The notes: a model not told the origin generated them from the sequence alone. A stretch of 64,000 bases of DNA from an uncultured Alphaproteobacteria bacterium (GCA_905234465.1 CAJOHU010000001.1:31708-95707), one strand, 5' to 3'; counted from the first letter of the stretch, positions 3,168 through 37,098 are shown. A program made the numbers and translations.

Positions 3168-4847
3168 TTAATCTTTCTTAAAAGCGTTTTTAATTTTTTG
3201 TATTGCATCGGTGTTTATGGCGGTGTTACCAATTACGCCGACGGCGGTACCACCAATTGCGACACCTGTACCAATTTTTTTGTTTTGCTCAGATTCTTGT
3301 TTTTGTTCTGCCCATGCGATTGCGTCTTCGCTGGTGCTGTACATTAATGCACGTGATACAGATACATTATCGCTGCTTTGGCGTTCCGCAGGGTTATATG
3401 AATATAAATCATAATCGGCGCGGTCATAAATTGTTTCAGATTCAATGCCGGGTTTTAACCCCAATGCCGCTTTGGTTTTTTTCAATTCGCCCGCCATATT
3501 TTTATATTCTTTGGCATATTCTGATATTTCATCGCCACCCGGCAAATAAATGGTTTCGGTGCCAACATTAAATACTTGGCCGTCACCATATTCGCATTTC
3601 ATTGTGTCAATCCATTCCCGCATATCAGATTCAGCTTTGGCATCTGCCGACTGTTCTGCCATCGCGGTTGCGACCATTCGCGCACCATACCCCGTTGCCG
3701 CAGATGCCCCAGCATTAACCAAGCGATTACCCAAAGAATTTTGTTTTTCGCGCGCATCGGCAAGTTTCTGTTGCGCGTCGGTAAGTTTTTGTTGTGCCGC
3801 GTCGATATCTGCTGCTGTGGGTTGTGGTTGTACAACAGGTTCTGGGGTCGTTTCTTTTTGTGTCGCCTCTTCTCTTTCTTTCTGTGTGGCATTGCTGTCA
3901 CTGTGGATATATTCGGATTTTGATTCCTGGCTTGCTTTTTGACTGACCATTAAGATCTGACTTTCGTCTGTTTGTCCCCATACCGGCATGTTTTCTATGT
4001 TGTCGCATATATTCTGGTTCAAATAAATATAGGTCGTGTTTCCCACGGTTTCATTGTTGTGCGCGCAGGTTTGTACCTCTTCATAACAAAAACTTTCTAT
4101 CGCGTCGGAACCAATTGCCTTATTACGATATAAGAAACCCAGAATATGCGTTTTGTCTGTGTTCATAATTTGTTTAGTTTTTGATGCATCGTTGAATGGA
4201 CGGCTGTCCCCAGGAACACCCGTTAATGATCCGCGACACCATTCAATGTCACTTATATCAAGTGCGGTCCATGTGCCCTCTTTTGTGGTTTGATCAACCT
4301 GGCATCTGTAGAGTCTGTTATCAATACCCAATACATAGGTGCCAGTGCCACAATCTTTATCGCTGGAAAAACCGCCGCAATAAAGCCATTTATGATCCGG
4401 ATTTTCAAGTACACCGGTTTTTGAGGAATATGTATCTTGTGGTATGCAATTAAGATTATCTATCTCATAGGTAATGTTAACAGAAGTATCTTTGTCGCAC
4501 CAAGCAACCATGTGCGTTGGAAAATTGTCACTAAAATTAGTAAAAGGATAATGTATTGTCATATCACATGTGTCATCATTCTCCAATATTCCTATCTGTC
4601 TTTGCCGCTGTGCTTGGGTACATGTATCAAGCAAATTATGATCTATCAAATATACTTGACCCCTTGCGGGTCTTGCTACCTTGGTCAGTTGTGTACAGTT
4701 GGTTATTTTTTCTGATACATCATTGGTAAACCAGCAAAAAGGACTGTCTTTGCTTTCGCAATGCATTGAAAATTGCGACTGTACTGAGTCAGCAAAAACG
4801 GGCACCGACAATAATATTAAATAGGCGGCAAATAAAAACTTTCTCAT
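3168..4847 (-). CDS. secreted/tail-anchored hypothetical protein. It has a signal peptide, a Cys-rich N-terminal region, a central coiled-coil (QQKLTDAQQKLADAREKQ) and a C-terminal hydrophobic Gly-rich segment.
   Basis: 559-aa ORF. N-terminus MRKFLFAAYLILLSVPVFA. More than 14 Cys in the first 300 aa. C-terminus IGTGVAIGGTAVGVIGNTAI. No recognisable catalytic motif. Confidence 0.65.
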   Translation of the reverse strand: MRKFLFAAYLILLSVPVFADSVQSQFSMHCESKDSPFCWFTNDVSEKITNCTQLTKVARPARGQVYLIDHNLLDTCTQAQRQRQIGILENDDTCDMTIHYPFTNFSDNFPTHMVAWCDKDTSVNITYEIDNLNCIPQDTYSSKTGVLENPDHKWLYCGGFSSDKDCGTGTYVLGIDNRLYRCQVDQTTKEGTWTALDISDIEWCRGSLTGVPGDSRPFNDASKTKQIMNTDKTHILGFLYRNKAIGSDAIESFCYEEVQTCAHNNETVGNTTYIYLNQNICDNIENMPVWGQTDESQILMVSQKASQESKSEYIHSDSNATQKEREEATQKETTPEPVVQPQPTAADIDAAQQKLTDAQQKLADAREKQNSLGNRLVNAGASAATGYGARMVATAMAEQSADAKAESDMREWIDTMKCEYGDGQVFNVGTETIYLPGGDEISEYAKEYKNMAGELKKTKAALGLKPGIESETIYDRADYDLYSYNPAERQSSDNVSVSRALMYSTSEDAIAWAEQKQESEQNKKIGTGVAIGGTAVGVIGNTAINTDAIQKIKNAFKKD

Positions 4848-12682: not shown

Positions 12683-13435
12683 ATGGCAAAGATAGACCAT
12701 TTCTTTTCAGAAAATATTGGAATTTCCGTTTTGGGACATTTGGTATTGTTGGCGGCGGTGGTGCTGTTGGCGGATGTCGTTTTTGTTGGGTTTAACCGGT
12801 TTGTCGCGCCCGACAGGATTCAGATTACAATGATAGATTTGGATAATGTGCGTGTGTCTGGGGATGAAACGGTGCTTTATAATACAAATACAGACAATAA
12901 CAAAAAAGACGATTTGAAAAAGCCGGATAACAAGAAAATACAGGAACAAAATGCCGCGCCGAAACAGAGTGAAGAAATGAAATCTACCACCCTTGTCCCG
13001 GATACAGAAAAAAAACAAGATAAAAATAAAAAGAGTGACAGTCCGGCACCCGATGAAACAGTTGCCCCGAAAACCAGTACGATTGTGCGGGTGAATCGGA
13101 ATGTTGTATCGTTGGACAGGACGCTTACTGTATCGGTGGTTGATGCGTTGCGTGTGGCGATGACGCGTTGTTGGACGATTGATACGGCGCATCCTGGAAT
13201 TGATGGAATTCGGGCGGTTGCGCATTTGACAATGCGGCAAAATGGAACGGTATCTGATGTTTGGTTTGAATCGGCGACGCGTGCGGAAACCGATGCGGCG
13301 TTTGCCTATGTTTTGGAAACGGTTCGTTCCGCGATAAATGTGTGCCAGCCTTTACGTATGTTGCCGATTGCGGAATATGACAAATGGAAAAAGATTCAGT
13401 TAACATTTTATCCCACCACCGGCGCAGTAATGTGA
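12683..13435 (+). CDS. tolA: TolA-like protein (N-terminal TM anchor, Lys/Glu/Asp-rich linker, C-terminal TolA/TonB-type domain)
   Basis: Anchor ISVLGHLVLLAAVVLLADVVFV. A charged linker of about 90 aa. The position after tolR is conserved. No tolB/pal follows, which is unusual. Confidence 0.55.
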   Translation: MAKIDHFFSENIGISVLGHLVLLAAVVLLADVVFVGFNRFVAPDRIQITMIDLDNVRVSGDETVLYNTNTDNNKKDDLKKPDNKKIQEQNAAPKQSEEMKSTTLVPDTEKKQDKNKKSDSPAPDETVAPKTSTIVRVNRNVVSLDRTLTVSVVDALRVAMTRCWTIDTAHPGIDGIRAVAHLTMRQNGTVSDVWFESATRAETDAAFAYVLETVRSAINVCQPLRMLPIAEYDKWKKIQLTFYPTTGAVM

Positions 13436-13436
13436 G

Positions 13437-13812
13437 AGAGTGGTTAGTGGATAGTGTTAGTGGTTAGTAAAACGGTGGCGTTCGCCACCGTTTTACGTCA
13501 CACCGCCTAAGGGCGGTGCCCAGTCTGAGCGTAGCGAAGACCTGCTCCGCAGGAGATTTTTCATCGCGGTGCGATGAAAATCTTTGGTGTCTGCGACGCA
13601 AGTTCACAGCGTTGCTGTGAACTGGGTCCCGGCCTTCGCCGGGATGACTGGTGTCTGGAATATTAGCCCCTAACCACTAACACTAGCCACTATCACAGCC
13701 CCTATCCCCCCGGCGGTTCCGCCGTACCCCTTCCCACAGGTAAGGGGAATTAAAAACGGTTGCCTTTTGCAACCGTTTACTAACCACTTACACTAACCAC
13801 TAATTACTAATT
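13437..13812. repeat. MITE-like composite element (about 375 bp). Its terminal inverted repeats are built from GTTAGTGG units (13437-13469 and 13780-13812), with an internal copy at 13667-13696. It encloses at least 6 stable hairpins.
   Basis: Left end: gtggttagtggatagtgttagtggttagtaaaac. Right end: the reverse complement ctaaccacttacactaaccactaattac. Internal hairpins include aaaacggtggcgttcgccaccgtttt, caccgcctaagggcggtg, gattttcatcgcggtgcgatgaaaatc, gttcacagcgttgctgtgaac, cccggccttcgccggg and aaacggttgccttttgcaaccgttt. Confidence 0.45.
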
Positions 13813-14294
13813 TTGCCGTGGCAGTTGGAATATAAGCCGGATTCTGTTCCGCCCAAATCCCGTGTCGTTCCGGCGCGTGCGACACCAAACATTGGGTGGC
13901 AAGCATAATTAATCTGCAAATGGCGTTGCCGCCAAGTGTCAAGCCCTTTACCCGTTTCCGATTCGGAACAAATCATTGGAAACCTATTTAAGGTTGCTGC
14001 GCACAGAGATTGCCCGTTTCACTCAAACACGCGTGGTGTTTGCTTCGTCACTGTTGCTCTAATCGTCAGATTGCTCTGCCCGGTAATTAGCCGGTGTGCT
14101 GTTCCGGTGCAGTCCGGACTTTCCTCCGCCATGGTGATGACGGCTATGCTTTTTCCAACTGCCGCGGGACAGGTTAGAATAAGGTGGCAATAAAATCAAC
14201 AAAATTTTTATATAAATTTTTTATATTTTTGTCTTGCACGGGTGTGGATAAATTGCTAACGTTTTTATCAAAGGGGAAGGAAGAAAACAGAAAA

Positions 14295-17200
14295 ATGTCC
14301 ATATTTCGCAGGTTTTTTGGCGTTTTAACAATCGCATTTTGTTGCGTGTTTGCCGTACATTCCGCATGGGCAAATTTTTACATCACCACAACAACCACAG
14401 GCTATTATCAACATGCTCCTACTGTATGCATAAAAGCCAAGGGTTCGTTTTTTGTTGATTGGGGTGACGGGGGAACTGATTCCTGTCATAATTCAATAGT
14501 AAAAAGTTGCTGTAAAACTCATACTTATTCAGATAATAGCATATCCCACACTGTAGAGATAAGTGGGCAACCAACAGAGTATGCTGACTATACCAATGCC
14601 ACTTTTGATGCTCAGCCAACAATAGCATTTTGCAATTGGGGCAATCCTTATCTTTTCCATTGTGCGGCGCCCTGGGTGGCGGGCATATCTGGGTCTATTG
14701 GTGAAATTTTTCCGACACTTGGTAATGGAAATAACCCAGGGCAACAACCATCGTTTAGCCATACATTTGGCAGTATGCCCAATTTAACCGGCACTATACC
14801 CGCTAATTTATTTAATGGGGTTCATGGAACGCCTGTGCGGTGGATGTTTAGCAATTTGTTTTTTGCCGATACGGGTTTGACCGGCAGTATACCGTCAAAT
14901 TTATTCAGTGGTATTACGGGTACGGCTGTCGGGGCATTTGCACATGCGTTTGGGAGAACCACCCATTTGAATTGCCATGTCCCGGCGGGTTTGTTTCATA
15001 ATATAGTGGGCAATGTTCCTCAGAGTATGTTTTATGAGACTTTTGCGGGTAGTCCGGAAAATGGACCGGATGATGGTTTTTGTACAGAAAGTGGCACATA
15101 TGGTTGGATAGCGCCCGATGCGTTTTCTATATCTCGCTTGTATGGCACGCCTTTTTCTAATTATCAAATGTATCGGATGTTTTATAAGTCTGGTCTGGCA
15201 CAAAGTTGTCCAAGTGGTTATACCCAATGGGTGACGGGGTTTGAAGACGATTGGGATGGTCGCAAGGCGTGTGTCCCGTCAAGTATGACACTTACGACCA
15301 ACTGCGGGGAAGGAACCGGTAACGGCACAAGTATGAATGTTTCATATAATGATAATGTAATTGTGGGATCCCCTTCGTCTTGGGGTTGTACTGCACCGGC
15401 GGGCGAAACATTCAGTCATTGGGCGGTGTCAAACAGTACAGACACATATAACGCAGGTCAGCAGTTTAATTGGCACTATGTACAAAACAAGGTGTTTACA
15501 GCCGTATGGGAAGGACATTATTATAATTTCGCGTTAAATCATAAAGACGGATCAAACAATGTGAATACGGTTTATGAAAAATACAATACCGGTTGGGCGA
15601 CCAGTGCAAATGCGTCTTCATGGAATTGGAATATGATTCTTCCACAAGATACTGTGCGCGATGGATACACTTTGCGTGGTTATTATGATTATGATTTTGG
15701 GGATGTAAGCAGCAATGATACTGTAAGTGAAACAGAAGCGTATTATCATATGAAAATTAAGTATGATAGTAGCAGCAGTGGGTGGAAACTGCCTGCGCCA
15801 ACTCAGGCGCCGGGTGCCACATGGTATGCGGCATGGGCGCGTAATTGTGCACCGGTTGCGCCCGCAACATGCAGTTTACAAATTGCTCCGCACACTGGTT
15901 CTGTGACGTACGTCACCACGTGTCCGGAAGGATATAATAAAGTCAATGGTACTTCATACAACCCGAGTTGTACGCCGGTGGGTGTGACAATTACTTTAAA
16001 TAATAATGATGCCACATCGGCGGGAACGACCAGTTTGACAACAGCGTACGGTGTCGGGGTTTATCTTGATGGTACTTTGATGACCACAAGTGGTCCTTCA
16101 ATTACCAAACCGCAAAAGCAATTTACCGTCACTTATTATGCCCAGGGCGGAACGATGACCGGTGGCAATTCAAGTATCACGCAAACCGCAACATCCACAT
16201 TTGATGGGTATTATTATGCCGAGAACAATAATGCACCTGTCCAGGTCATTGATGATGATGGATATATAACAACCAATGGTGATACGATTGGTAAAGAGTA
16301 TACCACCAATGCAACATGGACGGCGCAATGGTCGGGGGGGGCGGTCACTTTGCCGAATGCCCAACGTCCGGGGTGGACGCTGGTGGGGTGGAAAACATCG
16401 GGAAATTGTGGTGGGTCATTGGCAGGTACCCCGGGGCAGCACTATACCCCGGATGGAAATATAATGTTGTACGCATGTTGGACAAATGTGCCATATTATA
16501 TAATCACATTGGCCGATGGGTCTTATAATGATATTATACAAAACGGCATGATTACCGGGACAAATGGTGGCTGTACCAGGGCCGGGTTGCAATATGGTCA
16601 AGGTTGGCTGAATATATGCGATGCCCCATTGCGTGGTGCGCTGTCGCTAAGCCAGATTCCAAAACGACCAAACCATGTGTTTAATGGATACTGGGCGGAA
16701 TTGGCGGGTGGCGCGTCGGGCGTAGATAGCCAGGTCGTTACCAAAGACGGCGAATTTTGGGAAACAAGCGAGGTTTTAAATGGATTTGTGTCCGATTCAA
16801 CGATTACCGCATATTGGCAACCAAAATATCTTATAACGCTTAATCCCAATGGCGGCAGTGGTGGTGACACATCTATATATGAAGGATATGGGGTTGGTTG
16901 GTCAAAAACACAAAATGGTGATTATACTGATACTATAACAGTTACTAAACCACAAAGAACGGGCTATACATTTAGTGGATATTATGATGATCCGAATTTT
17001 GGTATAAAATACATTCCTCGCAGTGGTGTGGTATCATTAAGTCCTGCAACATTTTCAACACCAAAGACACTGTATGCACATTGGTCCCCGCGGAGATATA
17101 CCATCACATTAAATGATAATGGTGGCAGTGGCGGTCAGGTCGGTGACGCGTCGTCACACTGTACCACAGCCGACTTGGTGTACGGTACCCGTTGGGAAAA

Positions 17201-20200
17201 TGGATGCGATTCGGGCGGTGCTGTATATGACCGCGGTGCCAGTGGCAGTGGCGAGGGTGACAAAACAGAAACGGGCGAATCGGGTGAAGGCGGGTCTGGC
17301 GAAAAAGCCGCATCAAGTTCTTCAAATACCGGGTCCAGCAGTTTAAGTTTGTATCCTCCTCTGCCTACAAGAGATGGTTATATTTTCAATGGGTATTGGA
17401 ATACGTCCGCATCTTCTGGTGGAACCATGATTGTTACTCCACAGGGGGCTTTCCGCGAGGTAGATGCTGCCTTGACCTTTACATCCCAGGATGCGACTAT
17501 ATATGCGCGTTGGGAATCGGGAACACCAAGTAATACGATATATACGATAACATTAGACCCCAATAACAATGGGGCGGATGGAAATCGTCCACCAAAGATA
17601 TACCAAAAGGGAACTTCTTTCTGGGCGGATTCAAGCGCAACTGACTACCCGATTACTGGTTCTGTATTTGACCCGATTGCCGACGGTGGTGCGGGTATAA
17701 CTCGCCCAACCCCACCAAGCGGTAAAGCGTTCAGTGGATACTGGGATGACAGAATGACGGAACGGTTTACCGATGCAGATGGAAATATAGTGGCAACTGC
17801 TTATTTCACAGGCGCTGCAACGGTTAATGCCCACTGGGGGGATGCCGCCACGACAACGGTTACATTGGATGCGAATAATGGTACCCCATGTGCAACAAGA
17901 ACGGTGACCGCCACCCAGGGGCACGATATGCCGACATTGACGTGTGGTCCAACACCGCCCCCCGGGTATGACTTTACCGGGTATTATAAGACAGAATATG
18001 GGGGGTGGCAGTATTATGATGAACAACCGGCGTCGGTGCATGTTTGGGATCAAACAACATCAACCGCAACAATTTATGCAGGATATGAGCCGGCGGTTCG
18101 TGATGTGTCGTATCTGTGCAACAGCGGTGGGATTGGTTCGGCTAATATGGTGGATCAGGCGACGTATGGTTCCGAATATACTATCAAAGATTTTAGTACT
18201 GTTGGGTGCAACGCAATCATCGGTAAAAAGTTCATAGGGTGGACTATATCAGGATCCAATACTTTCGTGGAACCGGGCAAATCATACCAAAATTGGCCAT
18301 ACTATACCGATTTAACTCTGGTCGCCAAATATTTGGACATATACACTGTGACTTTGCGGCACCCCGATGCGACAAATAGCCCTATGCCGCGTGTCGCATA
18401 TGTTATACCATACACATCTGATTCAGCTGGGTATGAAGGTTGGTATTCAGAGTCAACCGCCGATACACCTCTTGTGGCCATGATTACGGCACCGCAACGT
18501 CCGCTGTATGATTTTACCGGGTATTTCTATTTGCCAGATGGTGATACACAATCCGACGAGATACAGATTGTGCGCGAAAACGGGTATTTTTTTGATAATC
18601 AAGAAACATTAGAGTTAATTACATCAGATGGAGTTGCAGACGCAGCTTGGAAGCCTGTATCGCCAGAATTGACTATCACGACTACATCGTTACCGGCAAA
18701 TACAACATTCAGATTCTATATCGGTGCCACGGGTGAATTTGTTATAACGTGGGGCGATGGACAGACACAAACCGTTTCTTCACCGGGTATCGTTTCGCAC
18801 ACCTATTCCAGTGCAGGTGCGCGTACCATCGATATTGTCGGAGATGCTACAAGTTATACAGATGCGTACACAACAGGAACTATATATAATACCGGCCGAG
18901 TGGCAGAATCTAGCCAGTGGTCAAACAATGCTGTGCGCCCGATCCAAATTAATTTCCCGGCGGCGATACGGTTTGGATGTGAAGCCGAGGATACATCGTG
19001 TGCCCTAACCCCACAATTAATTAGTGCTGTGCATGGATCTTTGGGTGATGTGTTTCCGACGCTTGGTACCGGAAACACGCAACAGCCGCGGTTTAGTCGG
19101 ACGTTCGCAGGCTGTACTAACTTGACCAATGTTCCTGAAGATTTGTTTGGAGGTGTGTATGGTGCGGCAATACCCGGAATGTTCTATGGTACATTTGAAG
19201 ATTCTGGGTTGGTATCTGTTGGACAGAATTTGTTCAGCGGTATAACATCGTTCGCACCGCACGCATTCCAAAGAACATTTATGGGATCTGATTTGTCTAC
19301 TGTGCCGGCGGGGTTGTTTAGTCATATTTCTGGCGCCCCAGCCGAGGCCATGTTTGCGTATACTTTTGCGAACACACCGTTGCGCAGCATACCAAGTGGT
19401 ATATTTAGTGGTGTCGTTGGTGCACCGGCGGTCGATATGTTCTGGGGAACATTTAGTGGGGTTCCTTTTGTATATGGAAATACTTTGCCGGCGTTGTTTA
19501 GTGGTATATCAGGTGCGCCCGCCAAAGGTATGTTTGATTCAACGTTTTATAATAGTTATAACCTAACTGGCACGATACCGGCTAATTTATTCGGCGGCAC
19601 CAATTTGTCGGGTGTGCCGGCAGAACGCATGTTCGCAAGTACATTCTATGGTTGTTATAATTTAAGTGGTTCTATCCCGGCAAATCTGTTCGGTGGCATG
19701 GGATTAACCGGTGCATCGGCGGTTGGAATGTTTGATACAACATTCTTTGCGTGTATCGGTCTAAGTGGTTATGTTCCAATGACACTGTTTGGTGGAATAT
19801 CTACATCTAATCCAGCAGCTGATATGATGAATCATGTGTTTCAGCATTCTGGGTTATTGCCAGTTTGTCCATGCGGAACACATGATTATACCACCGGTTT
19901 TGAATCTTATTGGGATGGCAAGGTTTCTTGCGAAGTCGGGTTAAAACCAAACGAACATTGGTACGGCGATATATGTGTAGAAGATTGTGCGGCGGGTATA
20001 ACGCAAATAAGAACAAGTACAGGGCTGTCTTTCCAAATATTAAAGACAAAACCAACAGAACATGCAATTCATATTAGTGCCCCTAGTGATGGTACGGTTT
20101 GCTATGTGCCATTGGAATCTGGGCTTGGAGGCACGGACAGTATGAATGTTGCATATAGTGGTACAACATATCATCTTGGAATTGTTTCTGATACTGCGCC

Positions 20201-20231
20201 TGCTAACTGGGATCCGTTGGCGTCATCATAA
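14295..20231 (+). CDS. giant secreted repeat protein (1979 aa). It has a signal peptide and N- and C-terminal blocks of about 30-aa LRR-like (BspA/DUF285-type) tandem repeats. Between them are at least 8 Listeria-Bacteroides-type repeat domains. There is also a Gly/Ser/Glu-rich acidic linker.
   Basis: The ORF-track frame begins at 14184, but the probable start is the ATG at 14295 (MSIFRRFFGVLTIAFCCVFAVHSAWA, with a GGAAGGAAG RBS). The LRR-like repeat consensus is MFxxTFxGCxNLTGSIPANLFGGxxGxPA, with about 4 copies N-terminal and about 9 C-terminal. The Listeria-Bacteroides repeats read YxITLNPNGGSGG...RTGYTFSGYYDD...TLYAHW. The duplicated module is FYITTTTTGYY..FFVDWGDGGTD / FRFYIGATGEFVITWGDGQTQ. 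Confidence 0.85.
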   Translation: MSIFRRFFGVLTIAFCCVFAVHSAWANFYITTTTTGYYQHAPTVCIKAKGSFFVDWGDGGTDSCHNSIVKSCCKTHTYSDNSISHTVEISGQPTEYADYTNATFDAQPTIAFCNWGNPYLFHCAAPWVAGISGSIGEIFPTLGNGNNPGQQPSFSHTFGSMPNLTGTIPANLFNGVHGTPVRWMFSNLFFADTGLTGSIPSNLFSGITGTAVGAFAHAFGRTTHLNCHVPAGLFHNIVGNVPQSMFYETFAGSPENGPDDGFCTESGTYGWIAPDAFSISRLYGTPFSNYQMYRMFYKSGLAQSCPSGYTQWVTGFEDDWDGRKACVPSSMTLTTNCGEGTGNGTSMNVSYNDNVIVGSPSSWGCTAPAGETFSHWAVSNSTDTYNAGQQFNWHYVQNKVFTAVWEGHYYNFALNHKDGSNNVNTVYEKYNTGWATSANASSWNWNMILPQDTVRDGYTLRGYYDYDFGDVSSNDTVSETEAYYHMKIKYDSSSSGWKLPAPTQAPGATWYAAWARNCAPVAPATCSLQIAPHTGSVTYVTTCPEGYNKVNGTSYNPSCTPVGVTITLNNNDATSAGTTSLTTAYGVGVYLDGTLMTTSGPSITKPQKQFTVTYYAQGGTMTGGNSSITQTATSTFDGYYYAENNNAPVQVIDDDGYITTNGDTIGKEYTTNATWTAQWSGGAVTLPNAQRPGWTLVGWKTSGNCGGSLAGTPGQHYTPDGNIMLYACWTNVPYYIITLADGSYNDIIQNGMITGTNGGCTRAGLQYGQGWLNICDAPLRGALSLSQIPKRPNHVFNGYWAELAGGASGVDSQVVTKDGEFWETSEVLNGFVSDSTITAYWQPKYLITLNPNGGSGGDTSIYEGYGVGWSKTQNGDYTDTITVTKPQRTGYTFSGYYDDPNFGIKYIPRSGVVSLSPATFSTPKTLYAHWSPRRYTITLNDNGGSGGQVGDASSHCTTADLVYGTRWENGCDSGGAVYDRGASGSGEGDKTETGESGEGGSGEKAASSSSNTGSSSLSLYPPLPTRDGYIFNGYWNTSASSGGTMIVTPQGAFREVDAALTFTSQDATIYARWESGTPSNTIYTITLDPNNNGADGNRPPKIYQKGTSFWADSSATDYPITGSVFDPIADGGAGITRPTPPSGKAFSGYWDDRMTERFTDADGNIVATAYFTGAATVNAHWGDAATTTVTLDANNGTPCATRTVTATQGHDMPTLTCGPTPPPGYDFTGYYKTEYGGWQYYDEQPASVHVWDQTTSTATIYAGYEPAVRDVSYLCNSGGIGSANMVDQATYGSEYTIKDFSTVGCNAIIGKKFIGWTISGSNTFVEPGKSYQNWPYYTDLTLVAKYLDIYTVTLRHPDATNSPMPRVAYVIPYTSDSAGYEGWYSESTADTPLVAMITAPQRPLYDFTGYFYLPDGDTQSDEIQIVRENGYFFDNQETLELITSDGVADAAWKPVSPELTITTTSLPANTTFRFYIGATGEFVITWGDGQTQTVSSPGIVSHTYSSAGARTIDIVGDATSYTDAYTTGTIYNTGRVAESSQWSNNAVRPIQINFPAAIRFGCEAEDTSCALTPQLISAVHGSLGDVFPTLGTGNTQQPRFSRTFAGCTNLTNVPEDLFGGVYGAAIPGMFYGTFEDSGLVSVGQNLFSGITSFAPHAFQRTFMGSDLSTVPAGLFSHISGAPAEAMFAYTFANTPLRSIPSGIFSGVVGAPAVDMFWGTFSGVPFVYGNTLPALFSGISGAPAKGMFDSTFYNSYNLTGTIPANLFGGTNLSGVPAERMFASTFYGCYNLSGSIPANLFGGMGLTGASAVGMFDTTFFACIGLSGYVPMTLFGGISTSNPAADMMNHVFQHSGLLPVCPCGTHDYTTGFESYWDGKVSCEVGLKPNEHWYGDICVEDCAAGITQIRTSTGLSFQILKTKPTEHAIHISAPSDGTVCYVPLESGLGGTDSMNVAYSGTTYHLGIVSDTAPANWDPLASS

Positions 20232-20311: not shown

Positions 20312-20527
20312 TTAGTGTTGTTCACCCATTTTTTTGGCGGCGTGTAATGCGGTGCGTAATGATTCATTTGCAATGTCATAAATACGTCCGGAAAAGGTTC
20401 GCATATTCATTGTATCGGCAAAATTTTTGCTGAAAACACCGGCGATGTATTCCAATTGGGCGGGCGATATAATAAAAACCTCGCTTGTAATATTGTTTTT
20501 TTCCAACTGTTTGATTTGTTCTTTCAT
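20312..20527 (-). CDS. small hypothetical protein (71 aa)
   Basis: The ORF lies between the giant gene and secA. The start MKEQIKQLEK was chosen inside the 82-aa ORF. No domain recognised. Confidence 0.3.
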   Translation of the reverse strand: MKEQIKQLEKNNITSEVFIISPAQLEYIAGVFSKNFADTMNMRTFSGRIYDIANESLRTALHAAKKMGEQH

Positions 20528-20682
20528 TATTATCCCCCTGCTGACATAAATATACACCAATTTTGAATAAATTTCAACCGTTATGACTTGTTTATTTTTC
20601 TGATTGTATTATATACATAAAGTATCTTGACCACAAGGCATAAAGTTGCTATACCAAGATTTGATAAAGATAAGGAAAAATT

Positions 20683-23292
20683 ATGGCGATAAATATTATT
20701 CAGAAAATACTGGGGTCGGCAAATGACCGATTGGTGAAATCTTATGATAAAACAGTATCGTTGATAAACGATTTAGAACCAAAATATCATGCAATGTCTG
20801 ATGCGGAATTACGCGCACAAACTGATGTTTTACGTAAACGTATTGCAGACGGAGAAAAAGAAAAGAATGTGTTGCCTGATGCGTTCGCTTTGGTACGCGA
20901 AGCGTCTGTGCGAACAATTGGTTTGCGCCACTTTAATGTCCAAATGATTGGCGGCATGGTTCTGAATAATGGTCAAATTGCTGAAATGAAGACCGGTGAA
21001 GGGAAAACCTTGGTTGCAACATTGGCGCTTTATCTTAAGGCGTTGTATGGCAGGGGCGCACACCTGATTACTGTGAACGATTATTTGGCATCGCGCGATG
21101 CAAAATGGATGGGTCAGGTTTATGAATTTTTGGGTTTGTCAGTCGGTATTATTCAGCATGATATGACCGATGACGAACGTCGTGCAGCATACGCGTGCGA
21201 TATTACATACGTGACAAATTCAGAACTGGGGTTTGATTATCTGCGTGATAATATGAAGTTTTCAAAATCGCAACAGGTCTTGCGCCCGTTGTTCTTTGGT
21301 ATTGTTGATGAGGTGGACAGTATTTTAATTGATGAAGCGCGTACACCGCTTATTATATCTGGACCATCCGAAGATATAAGCGAATTGTATGCCAAGGTTG
21401 ACGCAGTTGTTGCCAAATTAGCGCCTGATGATTATAAAAAAGACGAAAAAGACCGGCACGTCACACTGACCGAAGTTGGGGTTGATTCTGTGATGCGATT
21501 GTTGGCGGACGCAGGGTTGCTGGTTGGTGATAATTTATATGCGCCGGAAAATGCCGCATTGGTTATGCATATTCAACAGTCTTTGTTGGCACATCATTTG
21601 TTCCAAAAGAATGTAAATTATGTTGTCCGCAATGGCGAAGTTTTAATTGTTGATGAATTTACAGGGCGTGTTATGCCTGGACGCCGCTTTGGACGCGGTC
21701 TGCATCAGGCAATAGAAGCCAAAGAACATGTTCGTGTTCAACCAGAGAATCAGACGGTTTCCAGTATTTCTTATCAGAACTTGTTCCGATTGTATGAAAC
21801 ATTGGCGGGTATGACCGGAACGGCGATGACCGAAGCCGCTGAATTTGAAGAAATCTATAAATTGCGCGTTGTGTCTATTCCGACTAATCGCCCGGTGGCG
21901 CGTGTTGATCATCATGATGAAATTTATTTGAACAAAGATGAAAAATATTCGGCTATTATTAATCAGATAGATGAATGTCTTAAACGAAAGCAGCCGGTTC
22001 TTGTGGGCACTGTTTCAATTGAAAAATCTGAAGAGTTGGCGGACATAGTTCGTAAAAGATTGGGTATAAATCCGGCGGTGTTAAACGCAAAACATCATCA
22101 ATCAGAGGCAAAAATTGTTGCCCAGGCGGGTGCGCCGGGTGCGGTGACAATTGCAACAAATATGGCGGGGCGTGGAACAGATATTAAGTTGGGGGGTAAT
22201 GCAGAAGATTTAATTGCTGACTTGGATAAAGATGCGCCAGATTACGAACAGAAAAAGAAAGAAATTTATGATACGATTGAAAAAAATAAAAAAATTGTGT
22301 TGGATGCAGGTGGATTGTATGTAATTGGTACGGAACGCCACGAATCACGCCGCATTGATAATCAGTTGCGTGGGCGCAGTGGGCGTCAGGGTGATCCAGG
22401 CGATTCTAAATTCTTTTTGGCGTTGGATGATGATTTGATGCGTATATTTGGTGCCGCGCGGTTAAGCGGAATGTTAACAACGTTAGGGTTGAAACCGGGT
22501 GAGGCAATTACGCACCCGTGGATAACCAAGGCATTAGAAAAAGCGCAAAAACGTGTGGAAACGCGGTATTTTGAAGCGCGTAAGGAATTATTAAAGTACG
22601 ATGATGTGATGAACGAACAACGCGGGGTTATTTATAAGCAGCGTGATGATTTAATGACGGCGAAAGATTTGGCGCCTTTGACTAAAGAAATGATAGGGGA
22701 TGTTGTTGAAATTATATGTGAAAACAATATTCCGGAAAAAGCGCAGCCCGCAGATTGGAATATCAGGGGTATACATGATGCAATGGTGCGAATATTTGCG
22801 TTGGATATTACAGATATTGAAAATTGGAAAAATGACGAAGGTTTGACCGAGCGCAAAGCGTATGAATCTTTGTTGAATTTAGCGATGCAGCGATACGAAC
22901 ATCAATTCCAAAAGTATGGCGCAGATATGATGTCCGTTGCTTCGCGTCAAATGATGTTAGGGGCGTTGGATTCTGTGTGGAAACAACATTTGCAGCAAAT
23001 GGATTACTTGCAGACCGGCATCGGATTGCGTGGGTATGCCCAGAAGAATCCATTATATGAATACAAACGCGAAGCGTTGGGGTTGTTCAAAAGCACGATA
23101 AACAATTTTAAGATAATGTCGGTTGCATATATATCGCGTATGGATTTAACGCGCGCAGATGTTGATGAAACAGAAAAGAAACGCAATGAACATGACCAAT
23201 CGTTGAATTCTGCGGGCGAAGCACGCCGTAATGCGCCCTGCCCGTGTGGTTCTGGATTAAAGTACAAGCATTGTTGTGGAAAATTAAAATAA
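20683..23292 (+). CDS. secA: preprotein translocase ATPase SecA
   Basis: 869 aa. DEAD-motor motifs (MKTGEGKTL, DEVDSILIDEARTPLIISG). C-terminal zinc finger CPCGSGLKYKHCCG. Confidence 0.95.
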   Translation: MAINIIQKILGSANDRLVKSYDKTVSLINDLEPKYHAMSDAELRAQTDVLRKRIADGEKEKNVLPDAFALVREASVRTIGLRHFNVQMIGGMVLNNGQIAEMKTGEGKTLVATLALYLKALYGRGAHLITVNDYLASRDAKWMGQVYEFLGLSVGIIQHDMTDDERRAAYACDITYVTNSELGFDYLRDNMKFSKSQQVLRPLFFGIVDEVDSILIDEARTPLIISGPSEDISELYAKVDAVVAKLAPDDYKKDEKDRHVTLTEVGVDSVMRLLADAGLLVGDNLYAPENAALVMHIQQSLLAHHLFQKNVNYVVRNGEVLIVDEFTGRVMPGRRFGRGLHQAIEAKEHVRVQPENQTVSSISYQNLFRLYETLAGMTGTAMTEAAEFEEIYKLRVVSIPTNRPVARVDHHDEIYLNKDEKYSAIINQIDECLKRKQPVLVGTVSIEKSEELADIVRKRLGINPAVLNAKHHQSEAKIVAQAGAPGAVTIATNMAGRGTDIKLGGNAEDLIADLDKDAPDYEQKKKEIYDTIEKNKKIVLDAGGLYVIGTERHESRRIDNQLRGRSGRQGDPGDSKFFLALDDDLMRIFGAARLSGMLTTLGLKPGEAITHPWITKALEKAQKRVETRYFEARKELLKYDDVMNEQRGVIYKQRDDLMTAKDLAPLTKEMIGDVVEIICENNIPEKAQPADWNIRGIHDAMVRIFALDITDIENWKNDEGLTERKAYESLLNLAMQRYEHQFQKYGADMMSVASRQMMLGALDSVWKQHLQQMDYLQTGIGLRGYAQKNPLYEYKREALGLFKSTINNFKIMSVAYISRMDLTRADVDETEKKRNEHDQSLNSAGEARRNAPCPCGSGLKYKHCCGKLK

Positions 23293-29607: not shown

Positions 29608-29677
29608 GTGTTGTTTAATTTTATGGTTGATTCAAGTTGTGTGTTTCTACTATAATAAACAACAGAAGGGAGTAGAA

Positions 29678-32059
29678 TTGGTCAAAGGAAGGGTGTTTTT
29701 TGCCATTGCTTTTGCGTTTATTGTTGCGCCGTTGATTGGTGGCGGGGCGTTTTGTGCGACCCAACCGAATCCCCGCACAACCGATTCGAATGCTGTGCCT
29801 CGTCGGTCTGTTGGTGCGGTACAATCACGCAGTGTCACAACATTACCAACGCGAATTCGTGCCGTTACGCAACCTGGGGCGGGTCGCAGCGCAAAAACCA
29901 TAACAGCGGTGCGTACAGCAACCGTGACAGGTCCGCGTTCAGGAAGTACGCGCAGTGCAGTACCGTCTATGCGTGCGCGCAGTGCCAAGACGGGCGCAAC
30001 AAATGCCCGAACGGGTAAAAACATACTGGCGGGATTGTCGGGTGGCGCACGCAGCGCAATGGCGCGCGCAACCGCGGTGTTCAGTGATGTATCAAAAATT
30101 GGTTCGGGATATGCGGCGTGTCGGGAATCATATGCGACTTGTATGGATCAGATTTGTGCAAGTGCTAACGATTCATATCGCAGATGTGTTTGCAGTGACC
30201 GTTATACAAAATTCCGCAACATAGAAGATGCCTTAGATCAGGCGATGATTATGTTGGCGCAATTTCAGGATAATAATTTGAATGCTGTTGATAAAACCGC
30301 CGCCGAAGTTGATGCGATGTATTCCGCCACGGTTGGTGAAATGGCGATTAAAAGTGATACCAGTGCTGCCGCCAAAATGCTGGACGAAATCAGTAATTTG
30401 TTGTCCGGAAAATCAACATCATCGCCCTATTCTGGTTCTGCCAATTCTTTGGGAATTTTGGATTTAGATTTCTCTACCGATTTGGGCGACATATGGTCAA
30501 ATGATGTATCGTCTATATTTTCGTCTTCGGGGCAGGATATGTCTACACTGGAAGGTGTGGCGTTGTTTAATGCGGCACAGAATCAATGTGTGAAACTTAG
30601 CCAGGACGCATGTGAAAATGATGCGGCGTTTTCAATGTCACGCAGTTCTTATAATATTCTGATTAATCAAGATTGCAATCTGTATGAAACGAAATTGAAT
30701 ACAAACAGGGAAAAAGTGGCAAAGGCGATTCGTTTGGCGGAACAATACCTGCGTGAGGCGCGTTTGGAAGAATACCGTTCACATAATTCTGCAGATGTGA
30801 ATGAATGTATTGCCAAGGTTCGTGATGCGATTCTAAAAGATACCGCGTGCGGCGAAAATTATAAACGTTGTTTGGATCCAACAGGTGCATATATCAATGG
30901 CGTGACCGGTGCGGCAATTTACAGTCCACGTCTGTTCCAATTAGAAAAAACGATTTCATTGGAAGGGGTCACAACATCTGGGAATGTGAATACTGATATT
31001 TTGGGACAAAACAAGACATATGATAAGTTTTTAGAAAATTATCGCCAATATGTGGTTCGGGAATTAGATACGTGTCGGGATATTGCAGATTTTGTGTGGA
31101 GCGAATTCAAACGCAATGCGATTATTGAAATTGCCCAAGCACAAAGCGAGAAATTAGAAGAAGTAAAATCTTCGTGCGTTAATACCATAGCAGAATGTTA
31201 TGACACCCAAACAAACGCATTAAAAAATGTTGATAAAAATACGGCAACCACCGCAGGGGCATTGGGGCGGTATACTGCGCGTGACATGTGTGCGGAACAG
31301 GTGTCAGCATGTGCTACATTATATGGCAGTACCAAGAATAATGAATCGTGCAAATTTGATTCGCGTGGTCATTTGACATCTGATACCGATAAAGATTCGT
31401 GCGGATTAACATCGTTGTTGAACTATGTCAAGGCGGTTGATGATTTAAGTGTCGCACAAAAGTGTGAAGAGGCGATTGAAGAATATGTGACAAACCTGTG
31501 CACACCTGACAATTCTACGTATTCTTATCCATATAATTGCCGCAAATTAAGCAGGGATAATATACGTGATTCAATACAAAAGTTTGCAATAGATAATTGT
31601 TATGATCCCGGGACGGATACGGTTGCCGAGTACAGTGATTTGCCGGATAGGGTTCAAACGCGCATTACACTTTTATTAAATGATATTGATGAATCCATGA
31701 ATGCGACGTTGGCGGATGAATGCAGCGAATCGGGTGGTATGTGGTCAGAAAAAAGAGATTCTGATAATCAGGATAATTATTGGTTAGGTTTCTATAATAC
31801 GGTTTATGGCGGATACACCCCAGATAATGCCGATAGTGACAAAAAGTATGGAACCGAATGGGGATATTGTTACGCGAACAGTCCGCGGTTGGCATGTTTG
31901 GCATATGCCGACATGTGGGATGAAGACGAAGATGTCGCGGAATGGGATATGGCGACCCAGACATGTGTTTTATACGATGCTTGGTACAGACATAAATGTC
32001 AAGAACTGGGGTCGGGATATTATTTGGATGGTGTGTGTTATATATCATCTGATAATTAA
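29678..32059 (+). CDS. large secreted hypothetical protein. It has a signal peptide, an Arg/Thr/Ser-rich low-complexity region (RSxxT repeats), then a Cys-rich region of about 600 aa.
   Basis: Probable TTG start at 29678 (RBS gaagggag). The ORF-track frame opens at 29627. Signal peptide VFFAIAFAFIVAPLIGGGAFCA. About 35 Cys. No catalytic motif recognised. Confidence 0.65.
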   Translation: MVKGRVFFAIAFAFIVAPLIGGGAFCATQPNPRTTDSNAVPRRSVGAVQSRSVTTLPTRIRAVTQPGAGRSAKTITAVRTATVTGPRSGSTRSAVPSMRARSAKTGATNARTGKNILAGLSGGARSAMARATAVFSDVSKIGSGYAACRESYATCMDQICASANDSYRRCVCSDRYTKFRNIEDALDQAMIMLAQFQDNNLNAVDKTAAEVDAMYSATVGEMAIKSDTSAAAKMLDEISNLLSGKSTSSPYSGSANSLGILDLDFSTDLGDIWSNDVSSIFSSSGQDMSTLEGVALFNAAQNQCVKLSQDACENDAAFSMSRSSYNILINQDCNLYETKLNTNREKVAKAIRLAEQYLREARLEEYRSHNSADVNECIAKVRDAILKDTACGENYKRCLDPTGAYINGVTGAAIYSPRLFQLEKTISLEGVTTSGNVNTDILGQNKTYDKFLENYRQYVVRELDTCRDIADFVWSEFKRNAIIEIAQAQSEKLEEVKSSCVNTIAECYDTQTNALKNVDKNTATTAGALGRYTARDMCAEQVSACATLYGSTKNNESCKFDSRGHLTSDTDKDSCGLTSLLNYVKAVDDLSVAQKCEEAIEEYVTNLCTPDNSTYSYPYNCRKLSRDNIRDSIQKFAIDNCYDPGTDTVAEYSDLPDRVQTRITLLLNDIDESMNATLADECSESGGMWSEKRDSDNQDNYWLGFYNTVYGGYTPDNADSDKKYGTEWGYCYANSPRLACLAYADMWDEDEDVAEWDMATQTCVLYDAWYRHKCQELGSGYYLDGVCYISSDN

Positions 32060-37068: not shown

Positions 37069-37098
37069 GTGTTAGTGGTTAGTGTTAGTGGTTAGTAA
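37060..37098 (+). repeat. tandem copy of the GTTAGTGG repeat family. It overlaps the gpmI stop.
   Basis: ttagtgtaagtgttagtggttagtgttagtggttagtaaaaa. Confidence 0.7.

Follow-up and report, generated by a model that had tools for sequence, protein, structure and literature searches.

In a 64,000-nucleotide stretch of DNA from an uncultured Alphaproteobacteria bacterium (GCA_905234465.1 CAJOHU010000001.1:31708-95707; hereafter the window), we examined the gene at positions 14295 to 20231 of the plus strand, whose giant product consists of two repeat-bearing cassettes (the N and C cassettes), a long central array of small domains that we call the stalk, and a C-terminal domain. This gene has a fixed place in the chromosome and is a hotspot at which alleles are replaced and modules shuffled. 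The hypervariable syntenic locus is a new observation. Replacement of alleles and shuffling of modules at a fixed site fit an exposed protein under diversifying pressure, and on the strength of its sequence we infer that the product is probably a Sec-exported, adhesin-like surface protein, made by an uncultured alphaproteobacterium of the gut or rumen.

A hotspot of allelic replacement between rnpB and secA

The open frame runs from 14184 to 20231 (+) and is the sole long open reading frame (ORF) of the region. A purine-rich ribosome-binding site precedes the ATG at 14295, and the N-terminus encoded from there, MSIFRRFFGVLTIAFCCVFAVHSAWA↓N, reads as a typical Sec-type signal peptide (residues 1-26, 14295..14372, +), with an RR n-region, a hydrophobic core and the cleavage motif AWA↓N. 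The signal peptide is kept in the alleles described below. On account of this ribosome-binding site and signal peptide, the coordinates 14295-20231 given by an earlier note on this DNA are right, and the predicted coding sequence (+) is complete, with 1978 amino acids (aa) plus a stop. The note's giant secreted protein of about 2000 aa was thus borne out by an intact 1978-aa ORF and a cleavable signal peptide: the protein is real, and it is probably exported. Gene callers began the homologs P0002-P0004 at a GTG equivalent to 14184, a start against which the position of rnpB argues.

A highly repetitive protein taken from a metagenome could be the product of mis-assembly, or of a decaying pseudogene made of fused fragments. 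The results refute this explanation, to which we give practically no weight. No direct or tandem repeats were found at the DNA level in the giant gene; the identical protein (P0001) is recorded on three contigs (NCBI and ENA), and one independent ENA metagenome assembly translates to an exact match; in addition, three collinear alleles (P0002-P0004) are full-length. For these reasons the gene is not a collapsed assembly of several genes, a danger that the earlier note had itself pointed out. Moreover, four collinear alleles have intact ORFs, the ratio of nonsynonymous to synonymous divergence (dN/dS) of the mature protein, at 0.14-0.52, shows purifying selection, and both cassettes gave confident AlphaFold2 (AF2) models. 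The lack of DNA repeats in the giant gene also makes a diversity-generating retroelement or slipped-strand variation unlikely.

Gene order was the same in every related contig examined: a response regulator, a 301-aa ORF, a hydrolase, ruvB, ybgC, tolQ, tolR, a tolA-like gene, (rnpB), the giant gene, a 71-aa ORF on the minus strand, secA and dnaE. The giant protein encoded at this site has 1978 aa in the window; three alleles encode 2013, 1981 and 2188 aa, and syntenic genomes whose SecA is 90-92% identical encode 3265, 6622 and 7432 aa; whatever their size, all giant genes at the syntenic site end in the same C-terminal domain. Between alleles, the giant protein is 58-78% identical. In the comparison with locus L024, identity is 96-100% for six of the seven flanking proteins (SecA 99.4%, RuvB 99.4%, TolR 100%), 90% for the TolA-like protein and 58% for the giant protein overall; by region, the giant protein shows 28% in the N cassette, 60% in the stalk, 86.5% in the C cassette and 78% in the C-terminal domain. 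The N cassette is the most variable part between alleles, being 28-31% identical to those of L024 and L026 and 88% identical to that of L025. With L025 at 88% in the N cassette and 74% in the stalk, the allele pattern reads as a mosaic. The C cassette is about 86% identical among alleles.

At the DNA level, the flanks are 92-99% identical between loci. Homology to L024 and L026 ends at 14354-14373, which is the boundary between signal peptide and mature protein, and restarts about 1.2 kb further on at 56-76%; in L023, there is no alignable DNA between rnpB and secA. By Nei-Gojobori estimates, secA has a synonymous divergence (dS) of 0.24-0.36 and a dN/dS of 0.01-0.03. The corresponding dS is 0.58-1.24 in the stalk and C-terminal domain (stalk dN/dS 0.27-0.33), and synonymous sites are saturated in the swapped N cassettes, with dS about 1.8 versus L024 and L026. 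The exception is the N cassette compared with L025, itself mosaic, where dS is 0.18, below that of secA. Since most of the gene exceeds the genomic background in dS, the alleles are older than the strains, which speaks for replacement by recombination or for alleles maintained over a long time, beyond mere relaxed constraint.

Lying directly downstream of tolQ, tolR and the tolA-like gene, whose product is also unusually divergent, the giant gene might be thought to encode a periplasmic structural protein, internal to the envelope and tied to the adjacent Tol system. We consider this very improbable: rnpB lies between the giant gene and the tol genes on the opposite strand, a size range of 1978 to 7432 aa together with module swapping is hard to fit to a fixed periplasmic span, and the domains of the giant protein are typical of extracellular proteins. 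The TolA-like protein (12683-13435, +) has an N-terminal transmembrane helix, a K/D/E-rich linker and a C-terminal domain. Compared with L023 it is 54% identical, while SecA is 92% identical, and this envelope protein may itself belong to the divergence hotspot. Since TolQ and TolR are encoded upstream, we take the organism to be diderm.

Two cassettes, a stalk and a terminal domain

The N cassette (residues 28-330, 14376..15284, +) and the C cassette (residues 1456-1885, 18660..19949, +) are supported by block BLAST, a repeat hidden Markov model (HMM) and AF2, and for the C cassette also by structural matches in BFVD. Both follow a common plan, in which a small beta-sandwich (F.V.WGDG.T...HTY) leads into an N-cap (GS(I/L)G..FPTLG), tandem repeats and a closing cap. 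The N cassette consists of a PKD-like beta-sandwich (FFVDWGDGGT...HTY), an N-cap (GSIGEIFPTLG), four repeats resembling leucine-rich repeats (LRRs) and a Cys cap (CPSGYTQWVTGFEDDWDGRKAC); the C cassette consists of a PKD-like sandwich (FVITWGDGQT...HTY), an N-cap (GSLGDVFPTLG), nine LRR-like repeats and a Cys cap (CPCGTHDYTTGFESYWDGKVSC). In both, the repeat consensus is MFxxTFxGCxxLTGSIPxxLFxGxxGxPAxx and the cap consensus SGL..CP.G...TGFE..WDG+..C. BLAST of the whole protein against itself with default filters gave nothing off the diagonal, and block-against-block BLAST was needed to reveal the homology of residues ~46-326 with residues ~1475-1880 (265 aligned aa at 37% identity, E 7e-34). 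This alignment takes in the F.V.WGDG.T...HTY module as well as the cap, and confirms that a WGDG module stands before each repeat block, as had been read from the sequence at the outset. With a 31-aa repeat HMM built from the regular array of homolog P0024, we found four units in the N block, three clear (residues 154-239) and the fourth a weak fragment (245-252, E 0.16), and nine repeat starts in the C block (residues 1600-1837) with a period of 28-33 aa; the nine C-cassette repeats cover residues 1600-1843 (19092-19823, +). These numbers agree with the roughly four and nine tandem repeats first proposed. The AF2 models of the N cassette (pLDDT 84.1, pTM 0.86) and of the C cassette with the C-terminal domain (pLDDT 87.5, pTM 0.82) both have a six-strand sandwich, a short N-cap helix, a long solenoid to which DSSP assigns few strands, and a cap.

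Judged by profile scores, the sandwich is PKD-like: it lies below threshold in the window, where the C cassette scores 15.1 bits on the PKD domain (PF00801 / PF18911; cut-off 23.5), whereas homologs show it clearly as PKD or PKD_4, with 44.6 bits on PKD_4 for its equivalent in P0014. The cassette profile matches the PKD structure 4xed (E 4e-3), and a Foldseek comparison with PKD gave a weak match (root-mean-square deviation (rmsd) 3.1 Å over 50 columns, E 1.6). The PKD-like WGDG region (18660-18930, residues 1484-1545) also gave a weak match to NCBIfam NF058578, 'CPR pilus system RbmA-like protein PamR', which matches 8 of 17 cassettes (homologs including P0010 and P0025) with a best E of 3e-6, far under the 300-bit equivalog cut-off. 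Membership of PamR was rejected, the window protein reaching 11.6 bits of the 300 needed and in the PKD-like region only, and the match is taken as a likeness at the level of the domain. PamR is a pilus-associated protein of episymbiotic Patescibacteria.

Between the cassettes lie 11 Flg_new units, nine of type A (one half-length) and two of type B. The whole protein passes the cut-offs of Pfam Flg_new (PF09479; 28 bits, cut-off 27) and of TIGR02543 (24.4 bits, cut-off 20.95), which upholds the Listeria-Bacteroides repeats that the earlier note had placed in the centre. When units were scanned singly, only residues 842-930 passed the Pfam Flg_new cut-off (29.7 bits), with two more sub-threshold; the eight other type A units and both type B units were detected by iterated profiles only, seeded from the window protein's own Flg_new units. 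From the N-terminal side, the array begins with a Flg_new-like unit of type B (residues 328-405, 15276..15509, +; 66-74 bits with the iterated profile) and one of type A (409-514, 15519..15836, +), followed by a small four-Cys linker domain (515-562, 15837..15980, +), which was recognised by inspection, recurs in homologs (e.g. P0023, P0035) and has no Pfam match. Seven type A units come next (residues 565-1264, 15987..18086, +; Pfam, TIGR and iterated profiles), at residues 565-679, 686-729 (the half unit), 735-841, 842-930, 934-1073, 1081-1181 and 1188-1264, and the array closes with a unit of type B (1265-1346, 18087..18332, +) and one of type A (1348-1452, 18336..18650, +). The earlier note had counted at least eight central units of about 75 aa, each with a YxITLNxNGG start and an end motif. 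The count held; the uniform length did not, since the units measure 75-143 aa, and the motifs are present in some units and not in all. A Gly/Ser/Glu-rich acidic stretch, described there as a linker, is present as an insertion (residues 980-1017, 17232..17345, +) inside unit 934-1073.

The C-terminal domain (residues 1886-1978, 93 aa, 19950..20228, +) is predicted to be beta-rich and is real as the Cys-containing domain that had been noticed there; in its alignment (A3), C-x3-C, the C of CYVPL, and YH are invariant. Counted among 199 collected proteins, it occurs in 47 proteins of 71-7432 aa, once per protein and always last, at most 16 aa from the protein end in 39 of the 47 and at most 100 aa from it in any; a database profile search, limited by its word index, gave two proteins. 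It has no Pfam or PDB match, and matches to SH3_16 (Pfam, E 0.02) and to a cupin (Foldseek, E >= 0.17) were judged to be chance. With its fixed position across proteins of such different length, the domain looks like a sorting or anchoring module. It bears on the possibility that the product is not kept on the cell at all and is released as a soluble binding protein or effector. A signal peptide is present, a recognisable membrane anchor, barrel or lipobox was not detected, and a secreted DUF285 protein is known in Mycoplasma bovis (PMC8707762). The terminal domain speaks against release, as does the result that no enzymatic or toxin domain was detected in Pfam/TIGR scans, and we regard a released protein as unlikely.

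Relatives of the cassettes and of their repeats

In the first 42 homologs, 55 cassettes of 223-666 aa were delimited. Searched against 1.84 billion cluster representatives, the cassette profile matched 10,792 at E<=1e-3 and 1,978 at E<=1e-30; the longest of the proteins has 7626 aa, and a single protein can contain as many as 24 matched stretches. The cassettes are mobile, shuffled modules of a family with thousands of members. The N cassette of the window scores 149 bits to cassettes of other proteins versus 117 bits to its own C cassette; the C cassette, with 262 bits to its best non-allelic match, likewise exceeds the 117 bits to its own N cassette. Because each scores higher against other proteins than against the other block, we see no duplication within the gene, and the 'ancient internal tandem duplication' of the earlier note has to be given up, all the more as the N block is swapped between alleles.

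The named relatives found in protein searches are all gut or rumen metagenome-assembled genomes (MAGs) labelled Alphaproteobacteria, and many MAG proteins labelled 'Alphaproteobacteria bacterium' share 86-93% identity with the flanking SecA. The giant protein is therefore characteristic of a gut clade and not, as had been supposed, unusual for an alphaproteobacterium. A later genome scan with a narrower cassette alignment (A2) recovered Ca. Enterousia (order Rs-D84), rumen and gut Alphaproteobacteria and one Lachnospiraceae MAG, and one related cluster has a Clostridia member. The GTDB genomes Mgla_MAG_35 and UBA1185 have three cassette loci each, and in a relative (L020) a further ORF of 1841 aa (20557-22604) follows secA and dnaE at a distance of a few genes; related genomes may have giant genes at more than one site.

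No Pfam or NCBIfam LRR model was reached by the window protein or its cassettes, even at E<=10, and the family of the repeats was approached through homologs. P0034 was found with the full window protein (E 1.2e-60) in a search of 5.8 billion proteins; its repeat tract, which the window C cassette matches directly, scores 80 bits on DUF285. The repeat tract of the cassette-bearing P0025 scores 33 bits on LRR_5 (cut-off 27.7), and P0025 scores 37 bits on TIGR02167 (cut-off 30). Among 17 homologous cassettes, TIGR02167 ('PARCEL repeat') matches 10 at E<=0.01 (best 2.3e-15) and LRR_5 matches three. Members of related clusters carry the NCBI names 'BspA family leucine-rich repeat surface protein' and 'InlB B-repeat-containing protein' (PGAP). 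By sequence, the cassette profile weakly matches solved LRRs (FLS2, E 1.3e-3; BspA-like 4fs7, E 7e-3), and the P0034 tract matches plant LRR kinases (GSO1, E 1.2e-14). Comparison of the C model with the predicted viral proteins of BFVD gave matches named for LRRs, the 26-residue repeat, LRR_5 and the BspA family at E values from 4.5e-9 to 1.4e-4: 'Leucine-rich repeat protein' of Myoviridae sp. ctNQV2 (E 4.5e-9, TM score 0.43 over 469 columns), 'Bacterial surface protein 26-residue repeat' (E 3.8e-7), 'Leucine rich repeat 5' (E 4.5e-7) and 'BspA family LRR surface protein' (rmsd 4.4 Å over 252 columns). Because of these homolog bridges and predicted-fold matches, we place the repeats in the BspA/DUF285 (PARCEL) branch of LRR-like solenoids, as a long-period variant missed by curated models; the support is indirect. 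The branch itself seems to be without an experimental structure. The BspA/DUF285-style repeats of the earlier note are thus sustained by homologous cassettes and by BFVD, and not by the window protein, which fails those HMMs; domain and structure searches did not assign the terminal repeats to an unrelated beta-helix class.

PARCEL surface proteins are targeted to the membrane or to secretion, vary between close relatives and are spread by horizontal gene transfer, including phages (Roske et al. 2010, PMC2996958). Like them (DUF285/TIGR02167; Mycoplasma LppQ-type lipoproteins, M. bovis MbovP0145), the window protein has tandem amphipathic repeats with an MF..C..L core, and it shares both their targeting, through its signal peptide, and their variability, at 58-78% allele identity versus 96-100% for six of the seven flanking proteins. 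It differs from them in the repeat period (28-33 aa in the window and 31 in P0024, versus 25-26), in a repeat-coding DNA without excess dyad symmetry (exact inverted k-mers, k = 7-10 within 150 nt, were not above 300 codon shuffles in both repeat tracts), in the capped cassette with its PKD-like domain and Cys caps, and in its host, a diderm alphaproteobacterium. With BspA-type LRR proteins (LRR_5; Tannerella forsythia BspA; the JCSG structure 4fs7) it has in common the F..C..L...IP repeat logic and, presumably, a role as surface adhesin; its repeats are longer and do not reach LRR_5. Flg_new stalk arrays are likewise found in the large Flg_new / InlB B-repeat surface proteins of gut Firmicutes, Bacteroidota and methanogenic archaea. 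Unlike in these, most window units are too divergent for Pfam, there are two subtypes, and PKD-LRR cassettes and a new C-terminal domain have been added. The plant 'LtGsIP' resemblance remarked on earlier is real at the level of sequence and motif, the L(T/S)G.IP..L motif being shared with plant LRR receptor ectodomains (FLS2, GSO1, SERK), in which the period is 24 aa and the register another; there is no structural match, and the likeness is probably one of motif. Orthology with plant LRR receptor kinases was not favoured.

A further BFVD match of the C model, to a 'PKD domain-containing protein' of Synechococcus phage S-SKS1 (target-normalised TM score 0.56 over 389 columns), suggests by its length the PKD-plus-solenoid cassette as a whole, and the module appears, from these models, to circulate in phages. 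The exchange with phages that this suggests, together with the extreme variation of alleles and size at a fixed locus, speaks for a protective or decoy coat that shields the cell or serves as a phage receptor, with phage predation driving the turnover and no purpose of binding a host or partner. We think this rather unlikely. LRR, PKD and Flg_new are binding modules in every characterised relative (PMC8707762, PMC9723798). A gene present once in 64 kb whose product is laid out as a head on a stalk does not resemble what is generally known of lattice-forming S-layer proteins. A coat or decoy function also overlaps with that of an adhesin-like surface protein and does not exclude it.

Proposed function, surroundings and significance

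As an adhesin-like protein, the product would be exported by Sec and would present, as its distal ligand-binding head, the N cassette, in which a PKD-like sandwich is joined to a capped solenoid of four BspA/DUF285 (PARCEL)-related LRRs. The ~1100-aa array of 11 Flg_new units would serve as a stalk that projects this head from the cell; a second head of nine repeats would lie C-terminal to the stalk, followed by the conserved 93-aa domain, which would keep the protein on the cell envelope or direct its sorting. Between them, the variable distal N head and the conserved proximal C head would bind a partner on host material, on another cell or on a surface. Exposure would drive the variation, through phage, host immunity or partner specificity. 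This proposal is in keeping with what has been reported of related proteins: in gut microbes, Flg_new proteins are seen as an adaptation of adhesin-like character (PMC9723798), binding to host components is described for DUF285/BspA proteins (PMC8707762), and PARCEL proteins are variable surface proteins that tell close relatives apart (PMC2996958).

The proposed working mode, a long stalk of small beta domains that presents terminal binding modules, resembles that of the giant Gram-negative adhesins SiiE, LapA and MpIBP. These are type I secretion substrates, in which a signal peptide at the N-terminus is absent and RTX and C-terminal secretion signals are present. Unlike them, the window protein has a Sec signal peptide, and neither RTX nor any other such domain was detected in a Pfam scan. 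We also considered an autotransporter (type V): no barrel family was detected in Pfam scans, and the terminal domain has just 93 aa.

Several results weigh against an adhesin-like surface protein of this kind. The giant protein has no beta-barrel, RTX or lipobox that would point to a route through the outer membrane, and no secretion gene is found within the 64-kb window, which is otherwise housekeeping. The putative anchoring role of the C-terminal domain is proposed from its position and conservation. As to the repeats, neither DUF285 (PF03382) nor TIGR02167 (Liste_lipo_26) matched the whole window protein or either cassette, even at E<=10, and the window protein has no match to LRR_5 (PF13306), whose curated threshold was not reached. 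Foldseek against the PDB returned no solved structure at E<=1e-3 for either AF2 model, and neither 4fs7 nor any other solved LRR was recovered. Finally, dN/dS averages below 1, which falls short of demonstrating positive selection, and relaxed constraint with recombination would fit as well.

The surroundings of the gene include several further features. Directly upstream, rnpB (RNase P RNA, class A; 13817..14162, -; Rfam RF00010, 188 bits) lies outside the protein and forms the boundary of the variable locus; because it occupies these positions, an 85-aa ORF called at 13936-14193 is spurious. Between the tolA-like gene and rnpB, an element of ~370 bp (13439-13808) has 56-nt imperfect terminal inverted repeats and several internal hairpins, and is missing from locus L024, which is otherwise about 96% identical. 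Its motif TTAGTGGTTAGT occurs in seven copies in the window, versus 0.18 expected, with a tandem pair at 37072-37096, and the element looks like a miniature inverted-repeat transposable element or an insertion of the repetitive extragenic palindromic type. The 71-aa ORF between the giant gene and secA (20312-20527, -) was called in every syntenic locus examined and has no family assignment. An 810-aa ORF (29627-32059, +) with no Pfam match follows rsmH and two small ORFs, in the place expected for ftsI; relatives have Pfam-less genes of 765-785 aa at this position. A 559-aa ORF (3168-4847, -) also has no Pfam match.

The components of the giant protein are of known kinds, and it is not a new class. 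What is new here is the long-period BspA/PARCEL-type LRR in a PKD-capped cassette, the uncharacterised terminal domain and the allelic-replacement hotspot. The cassette is abundant in metagenomes and yet is missed in the window protein by current Pfam and NCBIfam models, and no solved structure exists for the cassette or for the C-terminal domain. Defining the two would better annotate thousands of 'hypothetical' giant proteins and would provide strain-typing markers.

These uncultured gut and rumen Alphaproteobacteria are almost unstudied. Lineages related to them have genomes under 1 Mb and a suspected dependence on partner cells, and a partner-dependent lifestyle has been proposed for Rs-D84, the order of Ca. 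Enterousia (PMC12306168). A gene of 6-22 kb that stays at one site while whole alleles are exchanged among nearly identical genomes is a strong candidate for an attachment molecule or for a target of phage or immunity. A wider and distinctly tentative proposal, which we hold to be improbable as it stands though worth stating, is that the C-terminal domain is an undescribed sorting or anchoring module shared by a family of hypervariable giant proteins on the surface of gut Alphaproteobacteria with small genomes, in which swappable PKD-LRR heads would set the partner cell or host surface and the rnpB-secA locus would be a specificity determinant of an episymbiotic or parasitic lifestyle. If the C-terminal domain were indeed a new sorting signal, or if the heads decided partner specificity, the finding would gain in importance.

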